A stretch of 64,000 nucleotides of DNA from the sequence record PQ666542; one strand, given 5' to 3'. This document shows positions 5,839-8,016 of this stretch, piece after piece (positions within the stretch are counted from its first letter, which is position 1; each line of letters begins with the position of its first letter). A model generated the notes under the pieces. It was given only the letters and a program-made list of their open reading frames with translations, had not been told where the DNA came from and searched no databases. Position numbers and translations under genes: made by a program. Origin of the DNA: Shigella phage sb4.

Positions 5839-8016
5839 TTAGGCCGCAAGGGCCTTCATAGTTTTAGCGACTTGGGAAACTTCATCATCACTTAAAGAGT
5901 TGCGATAACCGATGAAGTCGGAAACAATACGGAATTTCTTGGTAAACTCAGCAACCATTTTATCACTGTTTTTTGAAGCATTATTTGATAATACATCAAA
6001 AAGATTAGTTACTGTCCAGATGTCATGACCGATGGTATCTTTTCCACCATTGAAATATACGCCCCGTAATGAACTAACTATATTAGCGAGTCGTGTATAT
6101 TCTTCAGAAACTTCATCTGTACTGAAGTACTTCATCATAAAATCTAGTTCAGGATACTTGATAATTTTATCAATATATCGTTGAGCTGAACTTGAATAAC
6201 CTACGTACTTATCATAATCTACATCATCAAAAGCATCTACATATAAATCACGTAGAGTTTCAAAAATACATTGGCACTGACCGAGTTCTTTTACCTTTTT
6301 CTGCAAAAGCGGACGAATAACATAAAATTCATTAATGCCAAATAGATTAGCCATACGAATCAAAATACTCGTAGACGGATTACAGAGCGAAGTAGTACCA
6401 TCCATAGAAAAAATATCAGAACGATGCATATACGCTACATAACCAGTAATTTCATCTGCTTCTGACGTAAGTGTAAACAGTTCCTCTTTTTCCCAACGCC
6501 CGTCTTTAATTTCAAACTTAAACGCAGTAGCAGCTTTAGGACGAGGAGCTTTACTTTTAACTGCCTTCGGAATATAACTTTTAACTAAAGCTTCAATTTC
6601 TGACAAATAATGAATGTTAACTTCATCACTTTCAAACATTGCCATAATATCCGGGAGTAAATCAATCTGCGATTCTACTTCCGGATAAATAAACAGAAGA
6701 CGCTCATTATGATGAATATTCAAAGTGTTGTTAAATTCTTTATCATATAACGCATGCGCTAATCCACGGACAATATTAACACGATTTTCTATATTATCAA
6801 TAACAATATTAATTTTTGTTGTATTAATACCAAACAGACGATAACTTGATGCAACGGCTGAAGTTTCATGACTTTGCTTAATGCGTTTCAGTCGAGGGTC
6901 AAGATTTACTTCATACACAACTCCTGCATTGCATAACTTACTGTCAGGTTCAAACATGCTTTGCATCTTCTTATATGACAGATTTTTAGTCGTAAATTTG
7001 ACTGAATTACTAATCATATAATCTCGAGCAGAATATCCCATCTTCATCAATTCACGGTATGTATGACGAGGAGATGTAGATTCTTTAAATCGTTTTACAT
7101 CTTCATTGAATGCCTTCTCACTAAGCTCTTTAACACGCTCAATAATATTTTTACGAGTACGATCATCTAGTGAAAGAGCTTCACGTGATGGAGCAATATC
7201 AAGTGAACCCATTGGAAACTTAATGTAATTCACTTCATTGCGGATGCTTTACCAGTAACGGTCTCTAATAACACCATCAATAGGATAAACAATACCACCA
7301 TAGATAGCATATAATCCACCGCGATCTGGCCAGTATCTTTCCGGATTTACACCGTAATAGTCATCAAAATCCGGAAAATAATCAATTTCGCGGTCAAGAC
7401 CATTAATGCTAGCCAAATCTTTGAATGGCCGCATGATATAAGAAACTTCATAAGCAAAGTTTCTAAAGTCTTTTTCTTCAACTGGAACTACGATTTCAAT
7501 ACCAGTTTTATCGTTTGGACCCATTTCTTTTACGAATGTAGGTTTAATTTGCGGACCATCACCATCCATGTAAGCTACATAACCACGAATTTCACCTTTA
7601 TGATATGAAGTAATACTAAATGTATCAGTATTACTAAACGGAGATTTAGAACCTAAACCAAATCCGCCAATGAAATCGTTAGATTCAGCCTTAGATGAAC
7701 TAAAGTATGAATTATACAACCCAGGAGAATTATCATCACCTTGAATATCAAAATCACTCATACCCGGACCAAACTCTCGACAAACAACTCGCGGATCTAA
7801 TCGTCCTGGAACTTGAATGATAAATTTTTCAGGATTTCCATTGAGAGCATGGGCATCAATCATGTTGGTAATCAATTCACGGACTACTGCGCGAATCTTG
7901 TTTGTATACAAATCAGATGACAGAATTTTGAATACTTTAGGAGATGCTGTGATGCTAAATGCTTTTGATTTAGAACCATTACCAAGAATTGTTTCTTTTT
8001 AAGTGGTGATAATCAT
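5839..8016 (-). CDS. rIIA: rIIA protein; two in-frame TAA codons (7999-8001 and 7249-7251)
   Basis: 726 codons from ATG 8014-8016 to stop at 5839 = T4 rIIA 725 aa; N-terminus [13 protein letters not shown]. Confidence 0.9.

Follow-up and report, generated by a model that had tools for sequence, protein, structure and literature searches.

Premature TAA codon within rIIA of Shigella phage sb4, very probably an error of the determined sequence

The in-frame TAA at codon 256 of rIIA in the record of Shigella phage sb4 (PQ666542) is, with high probability, no property of the phage but a fault that entered a low-quality data set at base calling, consensus building or assembly. The true codon 256 is most likely TTA (Leu), and the phage would make a normal rIIA protein of 725 aa. 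The TAA belongs to a layer of substitutions toward A or T that extends over the whole window, is free of selection and is sufficient to produce the premature stops found there.

The window is the whole stretch of DNA analysed, 64,000 nucleotides in length, and represents the opening 64 kb of a T4-like genome (Tequatrovirus). From base 1 it is colinear with pSs-1 (NC_025829), to which it is 97.1% identical over 50 kb with only 11 gap openings. Filling of gaps with the reference was considered and not favoured: no stretch longer than 465 nt is identical to pSs-1, a length not clearly beyond what uneven divergence gives. One record is at least 99% identical to the window somewhere within positions 1..25000. 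Window 54571..54637 matches the distant positions 3224..3290 of pSs-1 at 98.5%, and window 56002..56091 matches the distant positions 29689..29778 at 88.9%; both stretches appear to be dispersed short repeats. The large topoisomerase subunit is encoded by a single ORF of 605/606 aa (8285..10105, minus strand), as in the relatives. In T4 this subunit is split into 39 and 60, with translational bypass. In the single-ORF gene of the window no bypass element would presumably be expected.

The rIIA frame and its two TAA codons

The rIIA frame (Table 1) comprises 725 codons and a stop, equal in length to rIIA of pSs-1, which it matches codon for codon (full-length colinear homology to the RIIA family of about 725 aa). 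The neighbourhood gene 39 - rIIA.1 - rIIA - rIIB is present, rIIA lying between rIIA.1/gene 39 and rIIB. The first-pass annotation had reported a second in-frame TAA of rIIA at 7249-7251, and this codon is present both in the sequence and in the minus-strand translation. Its two ORFs, 7249..7911 (upstream, 220 aa) and 5839..7233 (464 aa), are in one frame with 5 open codons between them, and their coordinates and codons are right as given. The codon-256 TAA is followed by the five sense codons SIRNE (7248..7234) and then by a GTG which opens ORF 5839..7233. No sequence resembling a ribosome-binding site was seen ahead of the GTG at 7233 when the sequence was inspected. Against the RIIA profile PHROG 612 (725 positions) the first fragment matches positions 37-244 (E 2e-99) and the second positions 261-724 (E 8e-117). 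Since both ORFs match consecutive parts of one profile, their shared frame reflects homology and not chance. Owing to the codon-6 TAA, the upstream ORF is devoid of the true rIIA start.

Six relatives were compared at rIIA: ZCEC15, ESh16, UGKSEcP1, pSs-1, sb2 and Sfk20. Homologs with two separate genes at this place, named beforehand as the finding that would speak against a single rIIA, were looked for, and all six relatives annotate a single intact rIIA of 2178 nt. The frame is interrupted in the window (TAA at codons 6 and 256) and uninterrupted in all of them. In the alignment codon 256 is TTA (Leu) and codon 6 is GAA (Glu) in 6 of 6. The total of 725 aa claimed for rIIA thus holds, being the length of the pSs-1 protein. 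The reading as one interrupted rIIA rather than two genes is borne out; the significance implied for rIIA in particular is not, about 36 stops being present window-wide. The entry 'rIIA x2' in the list of homolog matches refers to the small upstream gene rIIA.1 and not to a split rIIA.

The contexts of both codons were compared with database records. For window 7200..7300 (codon 256), none of the 411 matching phage records exceeds 98% identity. For window 7950..8050 (codon 6), 94 of the 497 matching records are identical at 99% (one mismatch) and 0 at 100%. Neither TAA context occurs in the 411 and 497 matching records, so both rIIA TAAs are private to the window sequence. Exact copies of 14 window proteins were sought among 15 billion proteins, and none was found. 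A 25-mer scan of IMG/VR gave 0 hits for the TAA version and 1 for the wild type, with too few T-even contigs there to inform.

Further private missense transversions in the window rIIA include N254Y, D424Y, N444Y and I559F. The N254Y change and the codon-256 TAA are two neighbouring members of one noise class and make up a local pair.

Table 1. Coordinates of rIIA, of its altered codons and of other lesions in the window
Feature	Position	Strand	Description
rIIA	5839..8016	minus	725 codons + stop, two in-frame TAA; identified by translation, ~97% DNA identity to intact rIIA, PHROG 612
TAA, rIIA codon 256	7251..7249	minus	TTA (Leu) in relatives; window-private T>A at 7250 (coding strand)
TAA, rIIA codon 6 (first in-frame stop)	8001..7999	minus	GAA (Glu) in relatives; private G>T
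AAC>TAC (N254Y), private transversion	7255..7257	minus	7 nt from the codon-256 TAA
TAA, codon 52 of small adjacent gene rIIA.1	8075..8077	minus	AAA (Lys) in pSs-1
TAA, codon 178 of DNA polymerase gp43	32043..32045	minus	GAA (E178) in pSs-1; checked directly
Premature stop, gp52	1088..1090		cut by one TAA
Premature stop, dda	15134..15136		
Premature stop, gp44	33815..33817		
Premature stop, gp47	38953..38955		
Premature stop, endonuclease VII	47102..47104		
Private frameshift, srd	16847		T7 vs T6 homopolymer
Private frameshift, modB	18284-18285		+2
Private frameshift, mrh	20048		G4 vs G3 homopolymer
Private frameshift, nrdD	45309		-1
Window-private intergenic indels	1814 and 42927		
Lost stop codons, two small genes (pSs1_0021 and pSs1_0025 homologs)	10990..10992, 12907..12909	minus	TAA>AAA, TAA>CAA; ORFs extended

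Unselected private transversions and premature stops across the window

A substitution was scored as private to the window where its base departs from one common to pSs-1, sb2, Sfk20 and UGKSEcP1. This four-relative comparison yields 596 private substitutions. The changes A>T, T>A, G>T and C>A account for 276 of the 596 per approximately 50 kb in the window, vs 18 in pSs-1; private transversions that yield C or G do not rise above background. Within genes this class numbers 253, distributed over the three codon positions as 89/82/82, and comprises 51 synonymous, 180 missense and 22 nonsense changes. The private transitions of the window are distributed as 54/33/174, the normal mark of purifying selection. 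In the pSs-1 control the same transversion class numbers 15 in genes (2/2/11), with 0 nonsense; the controls overall hold 0-4 nonsense changes. Random placement of the transversion spectrum on the coding sequence predicts 27 ± 5 nonsense (19 TAA, 4.4 TAG, 3.9 TGA) and 222 missense changes, vs 22 nonsense (19 TAA, 1 TAG, 2 TGA) and 211 missense observed. The flat distribution over codon positions and the occurrence of nonsense at the random rate indicate absence of purifying selection, as in sequence error. Predominance of TAA follows from codon usage (GAA, AAA, TTA and TCA are common) together with the spectrum of the noise.

Pairs of noise-class changes are over-represented 2.5-2.7 times at distances up to 25 nt and 1.3 times at 101-150 nt. 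Past 150 nt the ratio to expectation falls to about 1, which points to patches of roughly one short read in size. Nearby changes share the derived base in 0.53-0.55 of cases (0.50 expected), no more than by chance. Patches of spurious A calls in one read orientation were considered, and some clusters of at least three changes look one-directional, but this agreement in derived base is too near expectation to support a simple model in which each patch comes from a single bad read of a single orientation.

Substitution-type premature stops were located by projecting the pSs-1 genes onto the window, and three more were taken from the list of private changes. About 36 such stops (31 TAA, 5 TGA) are present in 64 kb, in at least 30 genes: 28 in the first 50 kb (24 TAA, 4 TGA) and 8 in 50-64 kb (7 TAA, 1 TGA). 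Genes bearing them include gp43 (DNA polymerase), gp44 and gp62 (clamp-loader subunits; two stops in gp62), gp56 (dCTPase), gp47, endonuclease VII, gp52 (topoisomerase), dda, imm (two stops) and rIIA.1. TAA stands in place of six amino acids, E, K, S, L, Q and Y, the complete set of its one-step neighbours. Most genes of the window still end in TAA. Four genes are frameshifted, several of the window-private indels lie in homopolymer runs (Table 1), and gp13 is broken. Genes 43, 44, 62, 56 and 49 of T4 are essential. As stops are carried by essential genes, a phage with such a genome could not, by T4 genetics, form plaques or be plaque-purified. The other in-frame stops reported for the window are probably the same artefact.

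A technical origin of the noise layer is inferred from these sequence patterns. The window consists of a base layer of natural divergence from the relatives, mostly third-position transitions, and a second layer of about 0.55% substitutions. Nearly all of the second layer yields A or T, through A>T, T>A, G>T and C>A and probably also some G>A and C>T. This layer ignores codon position, its patches extend to about 150 nt, and it is accompanied by a few indels that shift the frame, part of which lie in homopolymers. In an AT-rich genome with many GAA, AAA, TTA and TCA codons such noise mainly makes TAA. The codon-256 stop would stem from a wrong base at 7250, the noisy consensus giving A where the coding strand has T, and interruption of the rIIA frame is accordingly put down to sequence error. 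Candidate causes of the noise are base calling at low depth and damage to the template that PCR made permanent. The A/T bias would agree with spurious 'A' calls by a two-colour instrument; the test for a read-orientation signature was negative.

Sister records and alternative explanations

The records of sb1, sb2 and sb3 (PQ666539-41) start at pSs-1 base 1, an unusual trait which the window has as well. In sb1 (PQ666539) rIIA is in two pieces (5844..8021), with TAA at codons 8, 279 and 282 (GAA>TAA twice, TCA>TAA once), and gp52 is annotated in three pieces (187..1515). In sb2 (PQ666540) DNA polymerase gp43 is split in two pieces (29880..32576); the same transversion class numbers 67 in its genes, with 4 nonsense, compared with 253 in the window. 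The private TAA stops in sb1 and sb2 suggest a data-quality problem common to the batch.

The source study describes four phages from lake water; their enzymatic libraries were amplified by PCR and run on an Illumina NovaSeq 6000, and SKESA served for assembly (PMC11993411). It places the four in Tunavirus (PMC11993411); the sequences are 96-97% identical to Tequatrovirus pss1. PQ666542, there named TMC4, has 164,971 bp and 291 CDS; in its gene table TMC4_014 and TMC4_015 are both RIIA, TMC4_002 and 003 are both topoisomerase II, and nothing stands between DenB (011) and gp14 (012), gp13 being missing (PMC11993411). This table fits the window, with gp52 cut by a TAA, rIIA in two large ORFs and gp13 broken. 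Two of the four records have 285 and 291 CDS vs 254 and 255 in the other two, and those with inflated counts are the lowest in G + C, 35.16% and 35.35% vs 35.49% and 35.52% (PMC11993411). Lowest G + C in the records with inflated CDS counts is what noise toward A/T predicts.

The alternatives considered under ALTERNATIVES are a genuine rII ochre mutant, suppression or recoding of TAA, and a true gene split. Better placed than any of these, and still unlikely, is a reading by which the DNA molecules that were sequenced do carry the changes and viable phage does not (for example through template damage fixed by PCR from few molecules), or by which the deposited sequence was modified later. Where depurination leaves an abasic purine site and A is inserted opposite it, G>T/C>A and A>T/T>A would result. 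The spectrum of the window is the same, and the library was PCR-amplified from 50 ng (PMC11993411). Damage on individual molecules, however, should not reach the consensus at normal depth, and clustering on the scale of read length suggests errors at the level of reads. Split genes already stand in the published table (PMC11993411), which puts the stops in the deposited record itself.

A spontaneous rII-null isolate with a real rIIA ochre mutation, the stops elsewhere being errors, is quite improbable. Two stops in rIIA and one in rIIA.1 lie within 850 nt. The rII genes are dispensable on most hosts, and r or rII nonsense mutants arise readily and are common, so an ochre mutation is biologically possible for the rIIA site taken alone. 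Yet both rIIA stops are transversions of the class that makes up the noise across the genome, and the one at codon 256 has another private transversion 7 nt away. Two stops in 2178 nt is about the window-wide rate (approximately 36 per 64 kb). The three other TAAs in sb1 rIIA argue for noise rather than for selection of r mutants. Lesions are not confined to rII: the stops and frameshifts of the window include genes 43, 44, 62, 56, 47 and 49.

Readthrough or recoding of TAA by an ochre suppressor tRNA of phage or host, the genes remaining functional, is hardly credible. In its favour, TAA predominates heavily (31 of the premature stops, which number about 36), and the tRNA clusters of T-even phages are able to mutate to suppressors. 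The excess of TAA is nevertheless fully predicted by codon usage and the noise spectrum; TAA replaces six different amino acids with no single consistent residue, and remains the usual terminator of window genes. Besides the TAAs there are TGA stops, frameshifts and 180 missense changes that show no selection, and the rIIA stops occur in none of the relatives (TTA and GAA there) or of the 411 and 497 matching records. ARAGORN detects no tRNA within the 64-kb window. As the tRNA cluster of T-even phages falls beyond the window, the lack of a suppressor tRNA is drawn from the published list, in which the 10 tRNAs given for all four phages have ordinary anticodons and none is an ochre suppressor (PMC11993411). 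That the premature TAAs are genuine, and that lake-water Shigella phages propagate with a heavy load of ochre codons in essential genes under a strong ochre suppressor (of the host, or a phage tRNA encoded beyond the window), has next to no probability.

Division of rIIA into two truly separate genes in the lineage of the window, as the two long ORFs (220 and 464 aa) and the two RIIA entries of the published TMC4 annotation (PMC11993411) might suggest, is scarcely conceivable: the ORFs are in a single frame with one stop and 5 sense codons between them, are consecutive parts of one 725-position profile, and have neither a true start upstream, owing to the codon-6 TAA, nor a ribosome-binding-site-like sequence at the GTG at 7233, and all relatives possess one rIIA gene, a conserved stop and restart being found in none.

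Significance and comparison with known systems

The rIIA TAA, judged from the sequence comparisons above, is almost certainly an artefact of the record and no feature of rIIA. As biology it is without consequence, the phage almost certainly possessing an ordinary rIIA. It is of consequence as a warning on data quality: the record of the window, that of sb1 and, to a lesser degree, that of sb2 carry unselected substitutions toward A/T at about 0.5%. Such noise splits many genes, inflates gene counts (291 and 285 CDS vs about 255) and lowers G + C. Comparative or codon-usage analyses built on these records would be contaminated.

Compared with intact T4-type rIIA (nearest intact copy pSs-1 YP_009110823.1; PHROG 612 'RIIA lysis inhibitor'), the copy in the window is of the same length and in the same position, with approximately 96-97% DNA identity, and differs in the private TAA at codons 6 and 256 and in private missense transversions. 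The sb1 and sb2 records resemble the window in the genome start, in having pSs-1 as the closest relative and in the same private class of G>T, C>A and A<->T changes creating TAA. They differ in that the stops lie at other codons (8, 279 and 282 in sb1 rIIA) and in that sb2 is far less affected. Classical T4 rII ochre mutants, the system that defined UAA nonsense codons, likewise carry UAA within rIIA, which would truncate the protein. Those mutants, however, are single selected lesions in an intact phage, whereas the lesions of the window are unselected and occur across all classes of genes.
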